From assembly GCA_937129365.1 (NCBI GenBank), contig CAKZNB010000033.1:4754-68753 (forward strand): a stretch of DNA of 64,000 nucleotides. Reading direction: 5' to 3'. The position numbers were made by a program, and so were the translations under genes. The notes under the pieces were generated by a model. It did no database searches, had not been told where the DNA came from, and worked only from the letters and a program-made list of their open reading frames with translations. The stretch comes from an uncultured Flavobacteriales bacterium (GTDB taxonomy: Bacteria > Bacteroidota > Bacteroidia > Flavobacteriales_D > CAJJDF01). Shown one piece after another: positions 1 through 27,508 of the stretch. Numbering within the stretch: the stretch's first letter is position 1; each line of letters begins with the position of its first letter.

Positions 1-810
1 AACTTTGAAGGAGGTTGCTACGCAAAAACAATTGACTTAACCGAAGAGCAAGAACCACAAATATATAACGCTATTAAATTTGGAGCTATTTTGGAAAACA
101 TTGGTTTCCAACCTGGAACTTCTGCTCCTGATTACAGTGATACTACGATTACTCAAAATACAAGAGTTTCTTATCCAATTCATCATATTGATAATATTAT
201 GGTTCCTTCAGCTGGAGGAGTTCCAAAAAACATCTTTTTCTTAACTGCAGATGCATTTGGAGTATTGCCTCCAATCTCTAAGTTAACTTCTGGGCAAGCT
301 ATGTACCACTTTATATCTGGATATACAGCAAAGGTTGCAGGAACAGAAGCTGGAGTTACGGAACCACAAACAGTATTTTCTGCTTGTTTTGGAGCACCTT
401 TCTTGCCACTTCATCCAACCAAATATGCTGAGATGCTAGGGGAGAAGATTGCTGAAACAAACGTAAATGTGTGGTTAATAAACACTGGATGGTCTGGTGG
501 AGAATATAGTGTAGGAAGCCGTATTAAATTGAAATACACAAGAGCCATGATTACTGCAGCTCTTGAAGGTAAGCTTGATAATGTAGAATTTACAACACAT
601 GAGGTTTTTGGATTATCCATGCCAACTGAATGTGAGAATGTACCTACTGAAATGCTTTCTCCTAAAAACACATGGGCAGATAAAGCTGCGTATGATGCAA
701 AAGCAAATAGCTTAGCTAGTAAGTTTGTAGAAAATTTCAAACAATTTGAATCTGCAGCTAATGATGAGATAATGGCTGCTGCTCCTAAAACGGATGCGGT
801 AACAGCTTAA
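1..810 (+). CDS. pckA: Phosphoenolpyruvate carboxykinase (ATP), C-terminal part (5' end lies outside the window)
   Basis: The frame is open from nt 1 ([13 protein letters not shown]...). It continues through [32 protein letters not shown] and [10 protein letters not shown], all typical of ATP-dependent PckA. The listed TTG at 91 is internal. Confidence 0.9.
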
Positions 811-833
811 GTTTATTTGAAATATTAAAGTTT

Positions 834-861
834 AAAAGCTCTCCTTTGGAGGGCTTTTTTT
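834..861 (+). terminator. Rho-independent terminator after pckA
   Basis: Stem AGCTCTCC / GGAGGGCT (one G-T pair) with a TTT loop, followed by a T-run. Confidence 0.6.
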
Positions 862-874
862 ATGAAAGTATTTA

Positions 875-1438
875 TTAATCATACGTTCTTAAAATAGGAG
901 TTAAACAAATTACTTCATTTAAAATACCTTTTTCATTATAATAATTAGATGCAGAAGAGAATTTCCAATCTTCTGGTTTTGCTACAAATTCTTCCTTAAC
1001 AGGATTCTCATGTATGTAGTTTATTTTGTCCCAAACAAATTTTTCGGTAAAAAGTTCAATAGCATGATTGCCTGTTTTCCAAAATTTTATTTTCTCATTG
1101 CTTTTGTACTGTTCACCTTTTTCGGCAAATAATTTAATCATCCATTCTCTTCGAGATTCTGGCTCATTTCTAATTTGAAACAATATTTGTTTTGCAACAT
1201 GTCTTTTAAAATCTCTAATAGTATCACTAAGTTTGTATGGTTCATTACAATTTACTATTAAATGTATGTGATTTGTCATTATACAATATGCAAACACATT
1301 AAGTCCTTTGTTTTGAATACAATATCGTAGTGAGTTTAAAACTGCATATTTATGATTCTTTCTTGTAAAAACATCAATCCAGTCAGCAACTGTAAGCGTA
1401 AGGTAATAACTGGCCTCTTTTTTTATGGTATGTTTTAT
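875..1438 (-). CDS. IS200/IS605-like HUH Y1 transposase (REP-associated tyrosine transposase type); start codon unclear, possibly frameshifted
   Basis: HUH motif in CIMTNHIHLIV and a C-terminal Tyr region (FSSASNYY). The frame stays open upstream of the listed GTG (1297) through IKHTIKKEASYYLTLTVADWIDVFTR, the conserved first strand. No ATG/GTG/TTG occurs in that frame. Confidence 0.75.
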   Translation of the reverse strand: MKHTIKKEASYYLTLTVADWIDVFTRKNHKYAVLNSLRYCIQNKGLNVFAYCIMTNHIHLIVNCNEPYKLSDTIRDFKRHVAKQILFQIRNEPESRREWMIKLFAEKGEQYKSNEKIKFWKTGNHAIELFTEKFVWDKINYIHENPVKEEFVAKPEDWKFSSASNYYNEKGILNEVICLTPILRTYD

Positions 1439-1500
1439 TCCTTGTTTGATAATTGAATTTACAAAAAATAAATAAGACAGAATGTATAACTTTTTTCATT

Positions 1501-1525
1501 GCTTCGCAGTAGCTAAGCTGCTGCG
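1501..1525 (-). repeat. REP-like hairpin element, copy A (inverted relative to copy B)
   Basis: GCTTCGCAGTAGC-TAA-GCTGCTGCG. Its reverse complement matches copy B apart from the loop. Confidence 0.7.
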
Positions 1526-1584
1526 TTTTCATTGAAATATTTCACGTTTATTACTTACGTTTGCTCTGTTATGTTAGCTCTGTG

Positions 1585-1613
1585 CCGCAGCAGCTCAGCT
1601 ACTGCGGAGCGGG
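1585..1613 (+). repeat. REP-like hairpin element, copy B
   Basis: CCGCAGCAGC-TCA-GCTACTGCGGAGCGGG. Preceded by the shared leader TTGCTCTGTTATGTTAGCTCTG. Confidence 0.7.
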
Positions 1614-1707
1614 TAGTAAGTAGAATTTTTCTTTATAGTTTGTTTTTCGCCTTGAACCATTTACAAAGGTAATTATTTTGTTGGCTTTGTTATGTTAACT
1701 CTGCTTT

Positions 1708-1737
1708 CCGCAGCAGTACAACTGCTTCGGAGCGGGG
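1708..1737 (+). repeat. REP-like hairpin element, copy C
   Basis: CCGCAGCAGT-ACA-ACTGCTTCGGAGCGGGG. Preceded by TTGGCTTTGTTATGTTAACTCTG, which is similar to the leader of copy B. Confidence 0.7.
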
Positions 1738-1830
1738 TGTATCTTTTCTCAAATTGAGACTTCGCGATGAAAAACTTTGGTAGAGTGATAAATAAGCTTA
1801 AATTTCAACCAACTAATAATTTAAAATTTT

Positions 1831-2169
1831 ATGAAAGATTATAAAAAAATGTTTGCTTTGAGTTTTTTTATTTGGGTGATTGGATTAATTATTCTTAATG
1901 TTCTTGCTAATAAGGTTTTATCAAGCTTATTGTTGATTGTAAGTTTTATATTGTTAATATTGGGAATAATAATTTGGATTAGAAAACATTCAAATATTAA
2001 AAAAACAATAGAATCGTTTAAGGAGAAAACTAAAACCCATAAAGGTATTTTTAAATACCATAGGAGTATATTGGATACTATAATTTCAAAATTCAAACAA
2101 ATAATTATAATCTATTATTTTATTATTTCTTTGATTGTTTTGATTCATTATGACATTTTAAAATTTTAA
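1831..2169 (+). CDS. Hypothetical small membrane protein (very AT-rich ORF between inverted REP copies C and D)
   Basis: 112-aa ORF with two or three hydrophobic segments. No recognisable family, so coding status is uncertain. Confidence 0.3.
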   Translation: MKDYKKMFALSFFIWVIGLIILNVLANKVLSSLLLIVSFILLILGIIIWIRKHSNIKKTIESFKEKTKTHKGIFKYHRSILDTIISKFKQIIIIYYFIISLIVLIHYDILKF

Positions 2170-2335
2170 AACTATCAATTATATCGAAAAATATAGGCTC
2201 GTATTCAGATATTTTTTTTCTTTCGGTAGTCTTAGAAACAATATATAATTTATTACTACTAATAAAAAGAGTTATAAAATGATATAGTCTAACATTTTTT
2301 TGTTAGGTTAAGTTTTATTATTGTGAAGTCATAAT

Positions 2336-2363
2336 CCGCTCCGAAGCAGTTGCACTGCTGCGG
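2336..2363 (-). repeat. REP-like hairpin element, copy D (inverted copy of C)
   Basis: CCGCTCCGAAGCAGTTGCACTGCTGCGG. Its reverse complement differs from copy C at one loop base. Confidence 0.7.
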
Positions 2364-2573
2364 TATTCATCAATATGTTTCTGCTGTGCTGGATTTGTAA
2401 CCCTGCACTTTTCACCAGGCTTTTAGGTGGATTTTATTGTTGGCTCTATGTTACGTCAGATTTGCAGAGAGTGATTGTTTGCATTATAACTCAAATATAA
2501 AGAAAAAACCATCTTTACTTTCATAAGTAATTACAACATTTCCTTTGGCATCTTATGTATTTATACTTTCCAT

Positions 2574-2607
2574 AAAAAAAGCCTTCCTGATATTTCGGGA
2601 AGGCTTT
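2574..2607 (-). terminator. Rho-independent terminator of the OmpA-family gene
   Basis: GCCTTCC ... GGAAGGC stem. On the minus strand it is followed by a T-run (A-run 2574-2580 on plus). Confidence 0.65.
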
Positions 2608-2629
2608 GAAAATTAATTAGTTTAGTTTC

Positions 2630-3805
2630 TTAGAAAGCAACCTTAAACTCAACTCTACGGTTAAGTGCTCTACCTTCAGCAGTGCTGTTTGTAGCTCTTG
2701 GGTTATCAATTCCATATCCTTCAGAAGATAGTCTTGAAGCATCAATTCCTTTTTTGATAAGGTATTTCTTGGCAGCAGCAGCTCTAGATTTTGATAATCT
2801 TAAGTTACCTGATTTGCTTCCTGTGTTATCAGTGTAACCACTAATTTGTAATTTATATTCAGGATGAGCTAACATAATTTTAGCTACGTTATCTAACACA
2901 ACATACGATTTTCTTTCAATAACAGAAGAACCAGTTTTAAAGAATAATCCTTCCATAGCTTGAGTAAGCACTTTTTCATCTTCTTCATTCACTTTTGGGC
3001 AACCACTATTGGCAGCAATACCAGCAACTTTAGGACACTTGTCCATGTTATCTGGAATCCCATCTCCATCCGTATCAGGACATCCATCAAACTTAGCTAA
3101 ACCAGCTACAGTAGGACATTTGTCTTTACTGTCAGCAATTCCGTCACCATCTTTGTCATCTGCTTTTTTAGGACAACCGTTTACAGTTCCTGCCACAGTT
3201 GGACATTTGTCTACGTTGTCAGCAAATCCATCTCCATCCGTATCAGGACATCCTTTGAATTTTGCTAATCCAGCAGTTGAAGGACATACATCATCGCTAT
3301 CTTTAATTCCGTCACCATCAGAATCTGGACAACCATTAAATGCTGCAAGACCTTTAACTGTAGGACAGTCATCTTTATCGTCAGCAATTCCATCGCCATC
3401 TTTATCTTGCATAGGTAATTTTGCACCAAAATCAGAATGAGAATCAATATCCCATTGGTCAAATCCTCTCCATTTGTTAGTATGATTATCAATCAATGCA
3501 GGAATCCATCCAAGAGCTCCAGCTCCAAGAGCAATATCACCTGCTACATATTTAGGAAGTATTTCCCCTTCAACAGTGTAGGATGTAGTTGGATAACCGT
3601 TTAATCTATATTCAATATTATGAGGTTCAGTAGTTTCTAGAGCTACTGTTACAGGAGATGTTCCAACTTTGTTTCCATCTACATACACATCAGCGTTTGG
3701 CGGATTTGTAGTGAATGTAACATCTTGTTTAGTGTTTTTTCTTAAGATTGTAGCACAGCTTGTAAAAAAGAATGCTGCTAGTAAAATAGGTATTAGTTTT
3801 TTCAT
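2630..3805 (-). CDS. OmpA-family lipoprotein with a PEGA-like N-terminal domain and thrombospondin type-3 (Asp-rich Ca-binding) repeats
   Basis: Lipobox FFFTSC. Contains repeated DxDGDGIxDxxDKCP units. The C-terminal OmpA_C region includes YTDNTGS...NLRLSKSRA and NRRVEF. Confidence 0.9.
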   Translation of the reverse strand: MKKLIPILLAAFFFTSCATILRKNTKQDVTFTTNPPNADVYVDGNKVGTSPVTVALETTEPHNIEYRLNGYPTTSYTVEGEILPKYVAGDIALGAGALGWIPALIDNHTNKWRGFDQWDIDSHSDFGAKLPMQDKDGDGIADDKDDCPTVKGLAAFNGCPDSDGDGIKDSDDVCPSTAGLAKFKGCPDTDGDGFADNVDKCPTVAGTVNGCPKKADDKDGDGIADSKDKCPTVAGLAKFDGCPDTDGDGIPDNMDKCPKVAGIAANSGCPKVNEEDEKVLTQAMEGLFFKTGSSVIERKSYVVLDNVAKIMLAHPEYKLQISGYTDNTGSKSGNLRLSKSRAAAAKKYLIKKGIDASRLSSEGYGIDNPRATNSTAEGRALNRRVEFKVAF

Positions 3806-3889
3806 GATTTCTTTTTGTTTGAGTTACATAGCAAACTTAATAAAAATTATTAAAGGCACAAAGTGATATTTTTTGTAATATTGTGAGTT

Positions 3890-4738
3890 ATGAACAGAGT
3901 CGTTAAAGTATTAGTTGTCTATTTTTTAGGGTTTTACCAGTTAGGTTATTCACAAGAAGAGACTAAGGGGAAAATTAAAAAAATTAGTTTTGGGATAGAT
4001 ATAGGTTTAAATATTCCAAATAACAAGCCTGCACAGTTTTTGGATGGGTCTCATCCTTTTGGTGTTTCGCGTATACTTTCCAACCCTCAAATAAGGCAAC
4101 AACTTGAAACAGAACTTGGATATCCAATTAAAAATTGGGAATATTCAAGAAACAACACTTATTCGCCTACAGTATATGCAGGCTTGTTTTTAGGGTTTGA
4201 TTTGAATGCTGATTGGGCAATGGTAATGAAAGTCAATTTTTCGGTACTCAGATTTTCTACTCCACTAGTAATAGCATTGGATAATCCTCAAAATTTTACT
4301 GGAGAATTTGAGCAAGCCACAGTTACCGCTCAAGAACAAAGATTTGGTTACGAATTAGGAATTCAAAGAAAATACAACATTCAACCAAAACTTGATTTTA
4401 GCATAATGGCTGGTGCAAGTTTTAATTACATACAATTAGAGCGGCAAGAATTTATTGTAAGAAGCAGACAATTTGTAATAACTCGAATTCAAAACCCTCA
4501 AATACTTAATTATCAACAAGTAGATGGGTTTGGATACGGATTTTTAGCGGAAATAGGTGTGAGTTATGAATTAAATGAAAAGTTTACTCTAGGGCTTTAT
4601 ATCCAGGGTTCGGCAATCAAAAACAAAGAGTATATCGAAGAACTTACAGAGGGAACAACATACCTAAAACAATCGGCTGAAGAAGCCAGTAAATTTCTAC
4701 CAAGTTTTAGTACTTGTTTCAGACTTATATGGAATTAA
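3890..4738 (+). CDS. Hypothetical secreted protein, probably an outer-membrane beta-barrel
   Basis: Signal peptide and alternating beta-strand-like pattern. No recognised family. Confidence 0.5.
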   Translation: MNRVVKVLVVYFLGFYQLGYSQEETKGKIKKISFGIDIGLNIPNNKPAQFLDGSHPFGVSRILSNPQIRQQLETELGYPIKNWEYSRNNTYSPTVYAGLFLGFDLNADWAMVMKVNFSVLRFSTPLVIALDNPQNFTGEFEQATVTAQEQRFGYELGIQRKYNIQPKLDFSIMAGASFNYIQLERQEFIVRSRQFVITRIQNPQILNYQQVDGFGYGFLAEIGVSYELNEKFTLGLYIQGSAIKNKEYIEELTEGTTYLKQSAEEASKFLPSFSTCFRLIWN

Positions 4739-4813
4739 AGGATTAGTCCGATTTACTTTGACTATTATTACGTATTTCACTAATTTTACTTATAATTTTA
4801 ATAGCATTTTTTT

Positions 4814-5395
4814 GTGAAATACAATTTAAGTGAAATAACAGAGGTAATTAAGAATAGAAGAACCATTTATCCTGAGCAATATTCATCTCGCAAGATACAT
4901 AGAGAGATAGTGGAAGATGTGTTGAACAATGCTATTTGGGCTCCAACACATGGCAAAACTCAACCCTGGCGATTTCAAGTTTTTATGGATGATGCTCGCA
5001 TTGAGCTTTCGGAATTTTTGTCTTCGCTTTATGCTTCAAAATTTGAAGGAGAAGATTTCAATGAAATGAAATTTAACAAATTAAAGAACAGACCGCTCCA
5101 AGCTTCAGTTGCCATAGCACTAATAATGACAAGAGAAGAAGATGGAGTAATACCAGAAATGGAAGAAATTGAGGCGGTAGCTTGTGCAGTTCAAAACATG
5201 TATCTTACTTGTACAGCTTATGGTATTGGAGGGTTTTGGTCTTCACCAAAATTGGGCTATACGCAAGAAATGAAAGATTTTTTGGGAATTGCTGACACAG
5301 ATAAATGTTTGGGAATTTTTTATATGGGATACCCAGAAATAGAATGGCCAAAGGGGCAAAGAAAACCAATTGAGTATGTAACTAAATGGAGATAA
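4814..5395 (+). CDS. Nitroreductase family protein
   Basis: RRTIYPEQY and NAIWAPTHGKTQPWRF motifs with a GTG start. Confidence 0.8.
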   Translation: MKYNLSEITEVIKNRRTIYPEQYSSRKIHREIVEDVLNNAIWAPTHGKTQPWRFQVFMDDARIELSEFLSSLYASKFEGEDFNEMKFNKLKNRPLQASVAIALIMTREEDGVIPEMEEIEAVACAVQNMYLTCTAYGIGGFWSSPKLGYTQEMKDFLGIADTDKCLGIFYMGYPEIEWPKGQRKPIEYVTKWR

Positions 5396-5398
5396 ACT

Positions 5399-5743
5399 AT
5401 GTATCATATTTTTCCCAGCTATCATTATTACGAGCATCCTACGGATTCTAATTATCTTATTTTTACTCTGAGAAGAGAAGACATGGCTGAATATTTTGCT
5501 CAGCAACTAACTGATGCAAATATTGGCTACGAAACTGATACGGATATAAATCCACAAAAAAAGAAATTATATCATTTTGCTATTTTGCAAAGCAATAGAC
5601 CAAAGGCTATGGAGATTTTTCTTGAAACTTGGGCAAAATTTAGAAAACCATTTTTTCATAATCCAACCATCAAATTTTTCCTTTTGTTGTTAACGGTATC
5701 TTTGATAACTTTAGCCATAATTGGTTTTATAAAAAGTAATTAA
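5399..5743 (+). CDS. Hypothetical protein with a C-terminal transmembrane anchor
   Basis: ORF tightly packed between neighbouring genes, with a hydrophobic C-terminus (FFLLLLTVSLITLAIIGF). Confidence 0.45.
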   Translation: MYHIFPSYHYYEHPTDSNYLIFTLRREDMAEYFAQQLTDANIGYETDTDINPQKKKLYHFAILQSNRPKAMEIFLETWAKFRKPFFHNPTIKFFLLLLTVSLITLAIIGFIKSN

Positions 5744-6693
5744 TGTCAAAAAAAATAAAGATTGTAGAAATAACCTCTGAACTGGGAGCAGGAACAAGAG
5801 GTGCAAGTTTAGGAGTAGGAGCTTTAAGAACAGCTGCTTATAATAAAAACTCTAATTTTTATAAAGAGTATGCTGCAATATCAGTACCTAACTATAATCA
5901 GTATTTATTTTCAGAAATAAATACACCTGGAGCTATAAGAATTGAATATATCGAAAAGCAATTTGAATTAATAGCCGATTCAATTAAACAAACACTTCAA
6001 TCAGATAATTTTCCTCTGATATTAGCGGGAGATCATTCAACTGCAGCAGCAACAATTGCTGGAATTCAGCAAACATATCCAGATAAAACATTGGGTGTTG
6101 TTTGGGTAGATGCTCATGGAGATTTACACTCTCCATACACTTCTCCCTCAGGAAATGTGCATGGAATGCCGCTTGCAATTGCCTGTGGAATAGATAATAA
6201 GGATTGTAGTGTAAGGGAAATATCTCAAAAAGCACTTACCCATTGGGAGAATGTAAAAAACATGTCGGGTAAAAATTTAAACCCTAATAATTTGGTTTTT
6301 GTGGGTGTTCGAGATACCGAAAAGCCCGAAGATGTTTTGATTGAGAGATTAGGAATCAAAAATTTTGAAGTAGCAGAAGTTAAAGAAAAAGGAGGAGAAA
6401 CTGTTGCAAAAGAAACACTTCAGTTATTGCAAGGATGTGATATGCTCTACGTTTCATTTGATGTAGATAGTATGGATCCGCAAGAAACTTCGCATGGAAC
6501 GGGAACTCCTGTTGACGATGGAATTCCTGTAATAGAAGTAACCCAATTACTATCAACTTTATGTTCAAGTCCAAAATTAGTTTGTTTTGAAACGGTAGAG
6601 GTAAACCCTACATTGGACGAAAAAAAGAACAAAATGGCAGAAGTAACAATATCTATATTGGATGAAGTTGCCAAAAAAATAGCTGACAGATAA
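5743..6693 (+). CDS. Arginase-family (ureohydrolase) protein: arginase, agmatinase or formiminoglutamase type
   Basis: Mn-binding motifs AGDHS, DAHGDLH and SFDVDSMDP. Confidence 0.8.
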   Translation: MSKKIKIVEITSELGAGTRGASLGVGALRTAAYNKNSNFYKEYAAISVPNYNQYLFSEINTPGAIRIEYIEKQFELIADSIKQTLQSDNFPLILAGDHSTAAATIAGIQQTYPDKTLGVVWVDAHGDLHSPYTSPSGNVHGMPLAIACGIDNKDCSVREISQKALTHWENVKNMSGKNLNPNNLVFVGVRDTEKPEDVLIERLGIKNFEVAEVKEKGGETVAKETLQLLQGCDMLYVSFDVDSMDPQETSHGTGTPVDDGIPVIEVTQLLSTLCSSPKLVCFETVEVNPTLDEKKNKMAEVTISILDEVAKKIADR

Positions 6694-21422: not shown

Positions 21423-24092
21423 ATGACAAGAATGACTGCAAAGGAAATACGCCAGCAATACAAAGATTTTTTTGAATCGAAAGGACATAAAATAGTGGAT
21501 TCTGCCCCAATCGTGGTAAAGAATGACCCTACTTTGATGTTCAATAATGCAGGGATGAATCAATTCAAAGATTTGTTTTTGGGGAACAAAGAAATCAAAG
21601 ATGCTCGTGTTGCCAATTCTCAAAAATGTTTGAGAGTTTCTGGAAAACATAACGATTTAGAAGAAGTAGGTGTAGATACTTATCACCATACTATGTTTGA
21701 AATGTTAGGAAATTGGTCGTTTGGAGATTATTTTAAAAAAGAAGCAATTGAGTGGGCTTGGGAATTATTGACCGAAGTATATAAATTAGATAAAAACAGA
21801 TTATACGTAACGGTTTTTGAAGGAGATAAAGGAGACAACTTAGGATTAGATCAAGAAGCAAAAGATATTTGGAGTGGAATAGTTGAGGACGACAAAATTA
21901 TTTTAGCTGATAAAAAAGATAATTTTTGGGAGATGGGAGAAGTAGGCCCTTGTGGACCTTGCTCAGAAATCCATATTGATTTACGTGACCAAGAAGAAAT
22001 TGATAAAGTAGGAGGAAGAGAATTGGTAAATGAAGATCATCCGCAAGTGGTGGAAATTTGGAATTTAGTATTCATGCAATACAACCGTATCAAAGATGGT
22101 TCTTTGCATCCGTTGCCGGCTCAGCATGTTGATACCGGTATGGGATTTGAGCGATTGGCAATGGCAATGCAAGGCAAAAAATCGAATTATGATACTGATG
22201 TGTTTTCTCCATTGATTCAAGAAATAGAAAAAATTGCAGAAAAGAAATACCTTGAAGGCGAGGGACATTCGGAAGAACAAACCAAAACTAATATAGCGAT
22301 TCGTGTAATTGCTGATCACATCAGAACATTGGCTTTTGCTATAGCAGATGGACAATTGCCATCTAATACTGGAGCAGGTTATGTAATTCGTAGAATACTG
22401 AGAAGAGCTGTGCGATATGGTTACCAAGTTTTGGGATTAAAAGAACCATTTTTTCATAAATTGGTTGAGGTGTTGGCAAATGAAATGGGAGATGCTTTTC
22501 CAGAATTAATTGCTCAAAAGGATTTGTGTACCAAAGTGATAAAAGAAGAGGAAATTTCTTTTTATAGAACGCTTGAGCAAGGAATTAAGCGAATGGATGA
22601 CTTGATGAGAACTCATAAGTCAACCAAAAAAATAGATTGTAAAGATACGTTTGAACTCTACGATACTTATGGATTTCCTTTTGATTTAACGGCTTTGATT
22701 GCTCATGAAAATGGATTTGAAGTAAGCGAAGAAGAATTTGAAGTATGCCTACAAGAGCAAAAAGACAGAAGTAAAAGTGCTTCTAAAATGGATACTTCGG
22801 ATTGGGTAGTGTTAAAAGATGATGATGTACAAGAGTTTATTGGATATGATACTACCGATACGAGTGTGTACATAACCCGTTACCGAAAAGTAAAAGCCAA
22901 GAATAAAGAGTTTTATCAGTTGGTTTTTAATTTCACTCCTTTTTATGCCGAAGGAGGAGGACAAGTGGGTGATACAGGATTTATTGAATCGGAAAAGGAA
23001 AAAGTGTTTATTACAAACACTAAACAAGAAGATGGATTAATTCTTCATTATTCTGATAAATTACCTGAACAGCTAACTCTGATGTTTCATGCAGTGGTAG
23101 ATGCAAAAAAACGTGAGTTGACGGCTAATAATCATTCTGCTACGCACTTGCTTCATAAGGCTTTGCAAGATGTATTTGGTGAGCATGTAGAACAAAAAGG
23201 TTCGTTGGTAAATGAAAAACATTTACGATTCGATTTTTCACATTTTAGTAAAGTAACGGATGAAGAATTGGGTGAAATAGAAGCGAGAGTAAATGCAGAA
23301 ATTAGAAAAGACATTCACTTGAATGAAATGCGAAATACTCCTATGAAAAAAGCCCAAGAATTAGGAGCAAAAGCTCTTTTTGGAGAAAAATATGGAGATT
23401 TGGTAAGAGTGATTCAATTTGGAGATTCTATCGAATTATGTGGAGGAATTCATGCTACTTCTACAGGTAAAATTGGTTTGTTCAAAGTGATTTCTGAAAG
23501 CTCAATTGCATCAGGGATTAGAAGAATTGAAGCTATAACTTCTGAGGCAGCGGACAAATTTGTGAATGATAAAATAGAGTTGGTTCATGAATTGAATGTA
23601 ATGCTAAAAGCTCCTAAAGATTTGAAACTGGCTGTAGAAGAATTATTAAAGAAAAATTCAGCCCAAGCTAAAGAAATTGAGAAACTCAAAGCTGCTCAGG
23701 CTGGAAACTTGAAGGATGATTTAAAAAAGGAAATCACTGAAGTTAACGGAGTTAATTTCTTAGCGAAGAAAGTAGATTTGGATCCAAAAGGAATTAAAAC
23801 TATTGCTTTTCAGTTAAAGGCTGAAATGGATAATCTATTTTTGGTTTTGTGCAATGAGGCGAATGGAAAAGCTAATATTACCATTTTAGTTTCTGAAGAA
23901 TTATCAAAAGCCAAAGACCTACACGCAGGAAACATTGTGCGAGAACTAGCCAAAGAAATAAACGGAGGAGGAGGAGGACAACCTTTCTTTGCTTCTGCGG
24001 GGGGTAGAAATCCTAGTGGGATTGGGAAGGTATTAGAAATCGCGAAAAATTATATAAAAATTAAACAATCTAATAATGAAAAACCTAATTAA
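21423..24092 (+). CDS. alaS: Alanine--tRNA ligase
   Basis: Class II AlaRS motifs ([31 protein letters not shown]), editing-domain HSATHLL and C-terminal DHHA1 [14 protein letters not shown]. The 3' tail overlaps the next gene by 17 nt. Confidence 0.95.
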
Positions 24093-26817
24093 CATACTAT
24101 TGATTTTGGTAACATCTATGTTATTTACTAAATCTTTTTCACAGAACACCTATGTTCCAGATGATAACTTTGAACAAGCACTCATTAATTTAGGCTATGA
24201 TACTTTACCTTTGAATGATTCGGTACCTACTGCTAATATCAGTACCATCAAAAGATTATTTGTTTCCTATCGAGGGATTGTTAATTTTACTGGGATTGAA
24301 GATTTTACTGTCTTAGATACACTAATTTGCACTAGTCCAAATGATACTATATTGAAGTTAGATTTATCGAGTAATTTGGCATTACTCTATTTGAGATTAG
24401 GAGGAAGTCATCTTGACAGTTTGGATATAACTAATAATACTTCACTTAAATACCTTAATATCCAGTCTACTAAACTGAAAAGTATTAATTTATCCAACAA
24501 TACCGCATTACAATACTTATATATTGATAATAATTTTTTAGATAGTATAGACTTATCTAATAATATTAATTTGACTCATTTAAATATTGCTAATAATATA
24601 TTGCTTGATAGTTTGGATGTTTCAAATAATACTAATCTGATTTACCTAAAATGTACAAATGACTCTTTAAAATCACTAAATATTTCAAATAATTTGTTGC
24701 TAAGAGAATTATATTGTGATAGAAATAATTTGGATACTTTAGATTTATCTAATAATGATTCATTACGTAAAATTGCTTGTCAACTAAACCAATTGACTTC
24801 TTTAAATACAAGCAATTTATTAAAATTACAATCTTTTAATTGCTCACATAATCAAATAAATAATCTTGATGTGTCGCAAAACAATAATTTGATAACGATA
24901 TTTTGTGCTTATAACTCATTAAGTGATTTAAATTTAGCAAATAGCAATAATATAAATATAGTTAGTTTTAATAGTTTTGGAAATCCATCACTTAGATGTA
25001 TAAAGGTTGATAGCGTGAGGCATTCAGCAGCAAATTGGTTTAGCAAGGATTCTTTATCATATTTTTCAATTGATTGTTCAATACCCTTAGGATCAAAAAC
25101 ATATATACCAGACAATAATTTTGAATTGTACTTAAATCAAATTGGCTTAGATAATGGAGGTATGGATGATAGTATAGTAACTGCAGCTATTGATACTGTA
25201 ACTTATCTAACTATTATTTATAAAAATATTAGTTCTTTAAAAGGAATAGAAGATTTTGATTCTCTTGAATATCTAAATTGTACAAGAAACCTTTTAACTG
25301 ATTTAGATGTAACTCAAAATACTAAGTTGACTTATTTAAATTTTATGTGGCAACAAATTGATAGCATAGATTTATCAAATAATGTATTAATTGATACATT
25401 AATTTGTAGATGGAATCAATTAACTGAGTTAGATTTATCTGCTAATGTAAATCTTGAGTACCTTGACTGTGGAGGTAATTTAATTGACACATTAGATTTA
25501 GTAAACAATCCTCAACTATCATATTTAAAAATTAATGATAATCAAATTGATGGACTTTTAGATTTATCAAATAATAATAAAATTAATTTTATTTGGGGCG
25601 ATAATAATTTAATAGATAGTATCAATCTTCAAAACTGTACTGATATAGATTGGATTCAATTTAATTGGAATGAATTAACAAGTTTAAATGTATCAAATAA
25701 TTCTAAACTTAGAATTCTCACTTGTCACAGTAATGATATAGTTCATTTAGACGTTTCAAAAAATCCTCTTTTGACTCAATTAAGTTGTATAGGGAATCAA
25801 CTTGTTAGCTTGAATGCCAATAACGGAAATAAAAACTTTAATGCGATGTCAGCTCATTCTAATCCAAGCTTAAGTTGTATTCAAGTAAATGATACAAGTT
25901 TTGCAAGAGCAAATTGGTCTCATTTAATGAGTCCATCGGTTTTCAATTTAAACTGTGGATTTGTAAGAAGAAATACAGTTGATTCGACAAGTTGTAATAA
26001 CTACATACTTCCTTCTGGATTAGTATTAACAAATGATACTATTTTCTACTTGGATACAATAAAAACCTCAAGTGGACTAAATGATAGCATTATCGATGTA
26101 TTAAACTTTACTAAAGACACGATTCGGGATACTCTTAACCAAGTTTCTTTTCTTACTTATATTTCACCAAGCGGAATAGTATTAACTTCAGACTCTACAG
26201 GTTTTATGGATACAATAGTTAATTCAAGTGGATGTGTGACAATTAGCACAATTAATTTAACTATCAATACTTGCAGAGCAGAATACAGTAAAACTCAACC
26301 TACACCCGGACAAGTTACTCTTATTGATTCTACAGTTGGAAATAATTTAAAATACACTTGGTATTTTGGGGATGGTGATAGCTCAACAACAATGCTTCCG
26401 ACTCATAATTACGCCTCAGCAGGAACTTATAATGTTTGCTTAAAAATTATAGATATAGTTGGTGGCTGTACAGATATTTATTGTGATTCTATCACAGTAG
26501 ATTCATTGGGGATTTTAAGAAACGCTTGGGTGTTAAAAGTGATAAGAAATTATGTTTCTGTGGATAAACCAGAACAAATAATAGATAATGTTAGAGTATA
26601 TCCAAACCCAAACAACGGTAGCTTTACATTATACCTAGACAAAGAAATTTTGTTGAATCAAATTTTTATTACTGATATTAACGGAAGAATAGTAAAAGAA
26701 ATAATCCCTCAAAACATTCCTAAACAGAAAATTAATTTTGATGGAAGTAGTGGGGTTTATTTTATAAGATTGATTACCTCCGAAGGAAATAGAGCCTTAA
26801 GATTAATTAAACAATAG
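24076..26817 (+). CDS. Leucine-rich-repeat protein with a PKD domain and a T9SS C-terminal sorting domain
   Basis: Two LRR blocks, each opening with TY[VI]PD[DN]NFE and containing many LDLSNN-type repeats. PKD signature WYFGDGDSS...[13 protein letters not shown]. The CTD has [12 protein letters not shown]...GVYFIRL. Confidence 0.85.
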
Positions 26818-26987
26818 TTTCCGAAGAATTATCAAAAGCTAAAGACCTACACGCAGGAAATATAGTTCGAGAACTTGCCAAAGAAATCAACGGAGGAGGA
26901 GGACAGCCTTTCTTTGCTTCTGCTGGTGGTAGTAATCCAAGTGGGATTGGGAAGGTGTTGGAGTTGGCTGGAGGGTATATTTCATAG
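26817..26987 (+). pseudogene. Orphan duplicate of the alaS 3' end (56 codons plus stop, frame intact, no start)
   Basis: Translates to [56 protein letters not shown]. About 85-90% nucleotide identity by eye to alaS 23889-24056. Confidence 0.8.
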
Positions 26988-27071
26988 ATCTATTGTTAAC
27001 AACCCAAAATCAACCTTTGTAAGTTAAGTTGTATTTCTTCGTATAATTAGTAAATCAAAAAACTAACACTT

Positions 27072-27455
27072 ATGAAAACACTTACATTAGTATTAAGAAT
27101 TTTATTGGGAGCAGGAATGTTATTTTTCGGGCTCAACAAATTTTTCCATTGGTTTGATCCAAATGACGGAGCAATGCCACCTGAAGAAATGATAACCTTT
27201 TTTAAGGGAATGGAAGCTTCACAATATTTAATGCCCTTAGTTGCAATAGTTGAAATCGTAACAGGAATACTACTTTTAGTAAATAAATTCGTTCCTTTGG
27301 CCTTAGTAATTTTATTGCCTGTAATGCTTAACGCAATGCTGGTTCATGCATTTATGGATCCTGCACATATTGTAGGAGCTGGAGTATTTTTATTCTTGAA
27401 TATCTTTCTGATGTTTCAGAACAGAGAGGCTTATAAAGGAATGCTGAAAGCTTAA
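27072..27455 (+). CDS. DoxX-family membrane protein
   Basis: Four hydrophobic helices and the N-terminal pattern RILLGAGMLFFGLNKF. Confidence 0.65.
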   Translation: MKTLTLVLRILLGAGMLFFGLNKFFHWFDPNDGAMPPEEMITFFKGMEASQYLMPLVAIVEIVTGILLLVNKFVPLALVILLPVMLNAMLVHAFMDPAHIVGAGVFLFLNIFLMFQNREAYKGMLKA

Positions 27456-27474
27456 ACCGTTTTAATTTATATCA

Positions 27475-27508
27475 AAGCCGTTTTAACAATTTGTTGGAAC
27501 GGCTTTTT
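27475..27508. terminator. Bidirectional hairpin terminator between convergent genes
   Basis: AAAGCCGTT ... AACGGCTTT stem flanked by a T-run on plus and an A-run on minus. Confidence 0.6.

Follow-up and report, generated by a model that had tools for sequence, protein, structure and literature searches.

How does a single surface-protein gene come to lie at the 3′ end of a housekeeping gene, between two copies of that end, when no mobile element accompanies it? The question is raised by a stretch of 64,000 nucleotides (nt), referred to below as the window, from an uncultured Flavobacteriales bacterium (assembly GCA_937129365.1, contig CAKZNB010000033.1, positions 4,754 to 68,753, forward strand). 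In the window, the alanine-tRNA ligase gene alaS is followed by a gene encoding leucine-rich repeats (LRR), a PKD domain, and a sorting domain of the type IX secretion system (T9SS), and then by a second, untranslated copy of the alaS tail. An earlier note, made from the sequence of the window, had described this as the footprint of a Campbell-type or site-specific insertion that brings along its own copy of the target gene end. The reading favored here, to which we assign a probability of roughly 0.6, is that the locus is the recombination scar of a single gene gain, in which a foreign alaS tail and the LRR gene were imported together with homology as the anchor. It is a gene gain by ordinary recombination in a marine-type Flavobacteriales genome, an event of a known kind, and no new mobile element or system.

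Organization of the alaS locus

All features of the locus lie on the forward strand. The intact alaS gene (21423-24092; Pfam tRNA-synt_2c, tRNA_SAD, and DHHA1) has an open reading frame (ORF) of 889 amino acids (aa), called as 886 aa in public assemblies. Its last ~165 nt (23887-24056), the LEFT tail that alaS presently uses, are repeated at 26815-26981, directly 3′ of the LRR coding sequence. The downstream copy as a whole (26815-26987), the RIGHT or orphan tail, remains open in the alaS frame for 56 codons up to a TAG at 26985-26987, offers no in-frame start codon, and does not share the frame of the LRR gene, whose stop codon is the opening TAG of the orphan (26815-26817). The LRR gene itself (24076-26817; 913 aa; Pfam LRR_4, PKD, and Por_Secre_tail) begins within alaS, with an overlap of 17 nt. 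The recurrence of the tail after the LRR stop, the open frame of the downstream copy, and the 17-nt overlap all reproduce what had been read by eye. Beyond the LEFT tail, alaS continues into a C-terminal extension (24057-24092) that makes the protein ~10 residues longer than that of every relative. The extension contains the first copy of an 11-mer, AATTAAACAAT (24059-24069), while the second copy (26805-26815) specifies the terminal IKQ of the T9SS sorting domain and borders directly on the orphan tail. This shared word had been reported as a 10-mer; its presence at both junctions holds, and its length is corrected to 11 nt. Downstream of the orphan are the putative native alaS-DoxX spacer (26988-27071) and a gene for a DoxX-family membrane protein (27072-27455; Pfam DoxX).

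The second copy is not an assembly artefact, a possibility that had been raised as a potential refutation. A 601-nt segment covering the LRR end, the orphan tail, the spacer, and the DoxX start is identical, base for base, in four other, independent metagenome assemblies (ERZ650160, ERR2094168, ERZ650164, and ERR2094166, all from the ENA project PRJEB22134), the contigs of which were recovered by their exact LRR and exact DoxX proteins. In addition, the LRR end and the alaS context have just 7 nt in common at the joint, which is too little for a k-mer mis-join. An empty-site variant was not found in this population, as all six contigs with an identical DoxX gene (6/6) also have the LRR gene.

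The two tails are diverged alleles

LEFT and RIGHT agree at 133 of 147 positions (90.5%) up to the residues ...VLE and at 141 of 164 (86%) up to 24053, in line with the 85-90% and the one 3-nt indel estimated previously. The indel, a Gly codon in a GGA run, separates two blocks of 92% (23887-23975 versus 26815-26903) and 90% identity (23967-24037 versus 26892-26962). The longest identical block spans 20 nt, and identity at the left edge is limited to 7 nt. Chance cannot account for a match of 165 nt at 90%. Homology beyond ~24056 was not detected, since Smith-Waterman scores for the sequences after both tails are about those of shuffled controls (p 0.36-0.51), which rules out homology that reaches beyond the alaS stop and into the LRR start. 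When the 3.0-Mb genome is compared with itself by BLAST, only two local direct repeats of >86% identity come up, the alaS tail repeat being one, and no further footprints of this kind. The other repeat (G000:C48:39123-39463, outside the window) consists of two 158-nt copies that are 92% identical and start 183 nt apart.

The tails are closer to each other (90.5%) than to those of nine other species (81-88%), a closeness that is in itself compatible with either a duplication or a closely related donor. The distribution of their differences is more telling. Of the 15 substitutions that the 50 codons from V to E contain, all 15 are at third positions; 14 are synonymous and one exchanges R and S. 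The corresponding rates are dS 0.56 and dN 0.009, with an omega of 0.016. Under neutral drift of a non-coding copy, about half of the differences would be expected at positions 1 and 2; finding none in 15 has a P of ~3e-5. Polarization with outgroups places derived changes on both tails, and those of the orphan are synonymous or in frame. Differences confined to third positions indicate that the two tails evolved separately inside working alaS genes of different lineages and were brought together recently. The earlier proposal that the insert brought its own copy of the alaS 3′ end is supported by these values.

The same pattern bears on a duplication of the target in place, with one copy decaying thereafter. 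Long target duplications without mobility genes are documented (PMC2853133), and another Bacteroidia genome (G270, see below) has its alaS tail duplicated perfectly in tandem over 258 nt. An untranslated copy should nonetheless change at all codon positions, whereas the count here is 0/0/15 over positions 1, 2, and 3 with an omega of 0.016, and every derived change of the orphan is synonymous or keeps the frame. The codon-position count excludes a simple in-place duplication, and this origin of the second tail is highly improbable.

The empty site and the probable native tail

Relatives have the empty site that the earlier note had asked for. alaS is directly followed by the DoxX gene in three genomes (G005, G007, and G011) and on contigs L052 and L053; L053 has, in addition, the A2M gene upstream and the ABM, SAM_HAT, and PhoH genes downstream in common with the present locus. 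DoxX is likewise the neighbor in G003 and appears to be the ancestral downstream neighbor of alaS. The comparison establishes an insertion relative to the empty site. Refutation had been envisaged if all relatives carried the duplicated arrangement and the repeat gave no sign of separate origin; relatives have an empty site, and the tails trace to separate lineages.

Three features suggest that the downstream copy is the native one. First, AlaS proteins of same-genus species and of the nearest database relatives have 875-881 aa and end in ...KVLELA(K/E)GYIS* or close variants, and the orphan ends in ...GGYIS*, matching the genus-typical ...GYIS*. Second, alaS and DoxX are adjacent in relatives. 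Third, the alaS-DoxX spacer of L053 and G005 aligns collinearly with the sequence that follows the downstream copy (26988-27071). The LEFT tail, by comparison, carries the derived residues R, I, and N where relatives have S, L, and G, and its own stop is gone. Its 10-residue extension occurs in no other AlaS in a search of 5.8 billion proteins, and the best 120 database homologs of AlaS, all of 875-881 aa, cover just 96% of the C-terminal query. On this evidence the orphan would be the resident alaS tail in its original context, and the LRR gene together with the tail in use would be the addition.

The polarity could in principle be the reverse. The lineage would then already have possessed a LEFT-type alaS with the LRR gene, and a fragment from a sister lineage comprising an alaS tail, the spacer, DoxX, and further DNA would have arrived later, by homologous recombination on its right side and by an illegitimate joint at the LRR stop on its left, making the orphan and the downstream block foreign. 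The structure is symmetrical in this respect, since the codon-position signature tells only that the tails stem from two lineages. The phylogenetic affinity of the flanks is uninformative as a polarity test on both sides, with identities to relatives of 75-82% on the left and 75-78% on the right. The reverse order requires two events, an earlier LRR gain and then the import, and alaS-DoxX adjacency is the state of most relatives. Furthermore, it is LEFT that has derived residues and an aberrant extension while RIGHT is genus-typical, and the compositional outlier is the LRR gene. Reverse polarity is therefore considered unlikely.

The gap between alaS and DoxX is also occupied elsewhere in the genus. 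In G003 it holds a 2073-aa PKD-rich CHU_C (T9SS type-B) cargo gene (L055, G003:C16:97600-106400, 459-6680), and in G010 a 2603-aa PKD-rich CHU_C cargo gene lies right after alaS (L056, G010:C29, 1303-9114). Neither is accompanied by an orphan tail. The gap appears to be a variable spot in the genus and a recurrent landing place for genes of secreted surface proteins. Farther downstream, DoxX and the ABM monooxygenase gene are separated in relatives by a gene whose ~300-aa product is a multi-pass membrane protein (L004 2653-3555, L052 7340-8245, and L053 7152-8789), to which L053 adds an acetyltransferase gene; in the present genome DoxX and ABM are adjacent (window 27456-27506).

Absence of mobility genes

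The statement of the earlier note that no integrase or other mobility gene is present is borne out. There is no integrase, transposase, or tRNA gene within ±10 kb of the insert, no tRNA gene in the 64-kb window, and no recombinase recognizable by Pfam in any ORF from 12.4 to 36.8 kb. The ORFs of that region are housekeeping or unknown and include those for a hydrolase, A2M, alaS, DoxX, ABM, SAM_HAT, PhoH, a fatty-acid hydroxylase, an E2 catalytic domain, RadC, ClpX, and RibD. Mobility genes are absent from the locus. The insert comprises 19 nt before the LRR start codon and 0 nt after its stop, and because the coding sequence reaches the junction, no room is left for the arms of an attachment (att) site to which a recombinase could bind. 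Nor is there a short identical att core at both ends, of the 2-60 bp expected for integrative elements; the repeat covers 165 nt at 90% identity and is interrupted by mismatches along its whole length.

Analogous loci in other Bacteroidia

Scans with AlaS-tail queries covered ~750 other Bacteroidia genomes in total, namely an order-wide scan with a 56-aa query in 401 genomes and a class-wide scan with a 107-aa query in 401 genomes of at least 90% completeness. Three analogous loci were found, all in other families. In G220, alaS is followed by a 1177-aa PKD/CHU_C T9SS cargo gene and an orphan alaS tail. This orphan begins 112 codons ahead of the stop and matches at 99% over the 245 nt that the contig still contains. 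The complete genome G599 has a 4.25-kb insert with two opposite-strand genes (DUF7948 and DUF5122/Kelch) and an orphan of ~185 nt that is 89% identical and starts at V-S-L-G, at -57/-60 codons, about the same codon as in the window. In G680, also a complete genome, the insert is a 166-aa ORF and the ~200-nt orphan is 87% identical, starting at ~-72 codons, ~15 codons further upstream than here. Differences between tail and orphan over codon positions 1/2/3 number 0/0/3 in G220, 3/1/16 in G599, and 7/2/17 in G680 and are mostly at the third position. The cargo genes of the four loci are unrelated, and none of the three additional inserts contains an integrase. The earlier note had called an aminoacyl-tRNA synthetase gene an unusual target, which does not hold in view of these three alaS-tail loci in ~750 genomes and of lysS, which is known to be targeted by integrative and conjugative elements (ICEs).

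Further matches in the scans are of a different nature. One in G094 is a contig-end overlap and not an orphan tail. The match in G270 is the perfect 258-nt tandem duplication mentioned above and not an analogous locus (L070, G270:C6:80000-87500, 4245-4760); it comprises the last ~215 nt of alaS and 40 nt downstream, takes in the start codon of the next, lipocalin-like gene, and is either very recent or an assembly effect. G509 is ambiguous, with two alternative alaS ends (...KDFLN* and ...KDFLATN*) that share 120 identical nt, continue into different downstream DNA, and lie at contig borders (L081 (G509:C70) 1-120; L082 (G509:C111) 780-900). It represents either a strain polymorphism at the alaS end or another tail duplication.

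A control scan of the same 401 genomes with the GuaA tail returned one true orphan, one frameshift, one contig split, and one paralog. The counts of true orphans, 1 for guaA and 3 for alaS, are too small for specificity to be claimed, and alaS is not demonstrably a special target. The guaA orphan (G583:C51:59017-60017) consists of 66 nt from the last 22 codons of the gene, situated 615 nt downstream of guaA. It resembles the alaS scars in general kind but is shorter; guaA itself is a known island target.

These loci also bear on the possibility of an element that has lost, or never carried, its integrase. The insert would then be an integrase-less remnant or a cis-mobilizable element moved by a site-specific recombinase in trans, with TAGTTTC (23887-23893 and 26815-26821) as the att core, and would replace the alaS 3′ end with one of its own, in the manner of ICEs and islands at tRNA, lysS, and guaA genes. 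The order of parts resembles attL and attR (5′ part of the gene, core, surrogate tail, cargo, core, native tail), ICEs do use the 3′ ends of housekeeping genes including lysS (PMC4701971), and the loci in the window and in G599 break alaS at nearly the same codon. Set against this are the absence of an integrase or excisionase in or near the insert and in the inserts of the three other loci, and the missing space for attP arms. A common insertion position is not seen, with breaks at ~-57 codons here, -57/-60 in G599, -72 in G680, and -112 in G220, and the last two speak against a fixed core. Cargo is unrelated among the four loci, the putative core measures just 7 nt, and the mismatched 165-nt repeat exceeds the 12-54-bp att repeats of streptococcal ICEs (PMC4701971). 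Movement by a recombinase acting in trans is quite unlikely. Of the two footprints proposed in the earlier note, the Campbell-type one is possible and the island-like, site-specific one is not upheld, given the absent mobility and tRNA genes, the mismatched repeat, and the varying breakpoints.

Alternatively, the alaS tail and the LRR gene may form a cassette that excises as a circle by RecA recombination between the tails and re-enters a new host by a single crossover in its alaS, in which case the circle junction would read ...TTAATTAAACAA|TAGTTTC... into the LEFT tail. Direct repeats would allow scar-less excision that restores an intact alaS, Campbell re-insertion would give exactly the observed structure, and similar alaS-tail loci exist in three other Bacteroidia. 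Yet the LRR cassette is known from one population only, in which every contig recovered for the LRR gene or an identical DoxX protein carries it, and a longest identical block of 20 nt makes a poor RecA substrate. Cargo genes and handle lengths differ at every locus, and the guaA control also yields an orphan, so that alaS is not demonstrably special. If this improbable scheme were true, conserved 3′ ends of essential genes would serve as portable homology handles for recombinase-free single-gene cassettes in Bacteroidia, perhaps also in other phyla, and AATTAAACAAT would be the closure point of the original circle.

A proposed route of gene gain

The favored reading, homology-anchored import of a foreign alaS tail with the LRR gene, can be laid out as follows. 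The donor DNA would come from a sister lineage of the same genus outside the sampled set, in which the end of the lineage's own alaS is directly followed by the LRR/PKD/T9SS gene. This DNA would recombine with the resident chromosome, with the alaS homology as anchor. Its far end, which has no homolog in the recipient, would be closed by an illegitimate joint at a putative microhomology of 3-7 nt, TAG[TTTC], located ~170 nt before the end of the resident alaS. As an outcome, the working alaS would end in the imported tail (23887-24056), followed by the LRR gene, and the resident tail would be displaced to a position before the native spacer and DoxX. Such DNA may have entered in linear form, as in homology-facilitated illegitimate recombination (HFIR), or as a circularized fragment inserted by one crossover in the tail (Campbell type), and the sequence fits both. 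What served as donor, which way the transfer went, which intermediate was involved, and whether the gene is expressed are matters that we infer from the DNA sequence.

Two features of the locus correspond to such an import. Homology is one-sided, as the LEFT tail is homologous to the resident tail while nothing equivalent to the LRR gene is present at the empty sites of relatives, and the homologous segment is a diverged allele with the 15/15 third-position signature of another lineage. The joint lies within TAGTTTC (26815-26821), which includes the LRR stop; the true length of the microhomology would depend on the donor sequence past that stop.

Several observations weigh against this route. 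No protein, metagenome contig, or genome contig with the LEFT tail, its extension, or a close LRR homolog was found among the proteins of 5.8 billion clusters, JGI metagenome contigs (searched for exact LEFT and RIGHT patterns), and GTDB genome contigs (LEFT pattern only), so that the alaS-LRR adjacency in the donor is an assumption. The LRR gene beside alaS in a possible donor, suggested as a check by the earlier note, was accordingly not encountered, the closest LRR homolog having an identity of at most 42%. The insert hugs its ORF more tightly than a random illegitimate joint would usually produce. The presence of AATTAAACAAT at both junctions is unlikely by chance (~0.005, a rough post-hoc estimate) and is not explained by the model. 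The evidence for competence is not diagnostic; ComEC and DprA are present, but they also occur in 10 of 14 control genomes, including non-competent ones. Lastly, two of the four loci (the one described here and G599) break alaS at nearly the same codon.

The 11-mer occurs 11 times in 6 Mb (both strands) and is read as IKQ, in one and the same phase, at both places, the alaS extension and the LRR end. One may speculate that the alaS gene of the donor had the end ...YIKIKQ*, where a crossover on AATTAAACAAT first let in the LRR unit. It is equally a matter of speculation that the word marks the closure point of a circular form.

The LRR/PKD/T9SS gene

The product of the inserted gene has 913 aa and consists of a signal peptide, LRR modules, a PKD domain, and a T9SS type-A C-terminal sorting domain. 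It is probably exported by the T9SS as a surface adhesin-like protein. Its modules start with the (N/D)LGYD type, as in full-length homologs from Flavobacteriia, and it ends in ...LRLIKQ*, a canonical end of the T9SS sorting domain that resembles the ...VKLIKQ* and ...TKFIKQ* ends of resident paralogs. Because the termini match those of full-length homologs and resident paralogs, the ORF appears to be complete, with the joint coinciding with its natural stop.

No homolog above 42% identity was found among 5.8 billion protein clusters, and no full-length relative in 15 genomes of the family. The gene has a GC content of 27.5% (3rd percentile) and a third-position GC content (GC3) of 18.3% (7th percentile) relative to 1442 long ORFs of the genome, and is thus a compositional outlier, a point on which the earlier note had proposed a check. 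It also lacks the paired TTYATGAA boxes that precede the resident T9SS cargo genes of the window (10408/10429, 41524/41545, 52021/52042, 53744/53765, and 55444/55465). A lone TTCATGAA palindrome lies inside alaS at 23584-23591, ~490 nt ahead of the LRR start; at the 21-nt spacing of the paired boxes it has no partner.

A sequence scan located no terminator-like sites between alaS, the LRR gene, and DoxX and no separate promoter signal ahead of the LRR gene. The 17-nt overlap and the lack of a terminator-like site suggest that the LRR gene is probably co-transcribed with alaS. The genome of 3.0 Mb compares with 2.2-2.9 Mb in 12 other species of the genus, which fits extra accessory genes such as the LRR gene.

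Relation to known systems

As with the orphan fragments of Rhs, contact-dependent inhibition (CDI), and type VI secretion system (T6SS) effector loci, a resident 3′ end has been displaced at alaS and persists untranslated downstream. At those loci, the new 3′ part of an incoming allele displaces the resident 3′ end, which becomes an untranslated downstream fragment. The difference is that the exchanged 3′ end is there the payload (the toxin tip), whereas the tails at alaS are equivalent and the payload is the gene between them.

HFIR is a mechanism that the proposed route resembles in its joints, which are illegitimate and of 3-10 bp (de Vries & Wackernagel 2002, Prudhomme et al. 2002, Meier & Wackernagel 2003, as summarised in PMC6382021). 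According to that summary, foreign DNA enters via one homologous anchor, here alaS, with no recombinase encoded by the element, and its far end is joined at 3-10 bp of microhomology, here a putative TAG or up to TAGTTTC. As the summary presents it, HFIR was defined in laboratory transformation of competent species and usually involves deletion of recipient DNA. At alaS, by contrast, the joint lies upstream of the anchor end, and the recipient tail is kept as an orphan.

Insertions with long target duplications, described for restriction-modification (R-M) genes (Nobusato et al. 2000; Furuta et al. 2010, PMC2853133), are likewise small units without mobility genes and come mostly from competent species. 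Their direct repeats measure 30-420 bp (e.g., 417/423 and 384/412), correspond to one copy in the genome with the empty site, and frequently reach into the 3′ end of an adjacent gene (PMC2853133), as happens here. The alaS locus shares repeats longer than 30 bp, a single copy in empty-site genomes, and the lack of mobility genes. It departs from them in that the cargo is a T9SS surface protein and not an R-M system and in that the repeats are not the recipient's own target duplicated at insertion but two separately evolved, functional alleles from different lineages.

ICEs, integrative and mobilizable elements, and prophages that reside in housekeeping genes keep the target intact through a replacement 3′ end and leave the native end at the far junction. 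In Streptococcus, ICEs target the 3′ ends of lysS, rplL, rpsI, and guaA, with att repeats of 12-54 bp (PMC4701971). The locus conforms to this layout, with alaS intact by virtue of a surrogate end and its native tail orphaned, and its target is an aminoacyl-tRNA synthetase gene, as with the lysS ICEs (PMC4701971). Unlike these elements, the insert consists of one ORF with no spare DNA and has no integrase, excisionase, or transfer gene; its repeat spans 165 nt at 90% identity as opposed to 12-54 bp, and breakpoints vary among the analogous loci.

Significance

The locus provides an unusually clean natural record of the gain of a single surface-protein gene in a bacterium without obvious mobile elements. 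Its sequence makes legible the anchor, which is a conserved essential gene, the putative illegitimate joint, the empty site, and the source of the replacement tail in another lineage. Where the differences between two copies fall within codons gives a simple diagnostic for telling an imported allele and an in-place duplication apart. Distant Bacteroidia carry the same scar at alaS around other cargo, as seen in the order- and class-wide scans, and the finding supports the view that natural cell-surface repertoires are shaped by homology-anchored illegitimate recombination.

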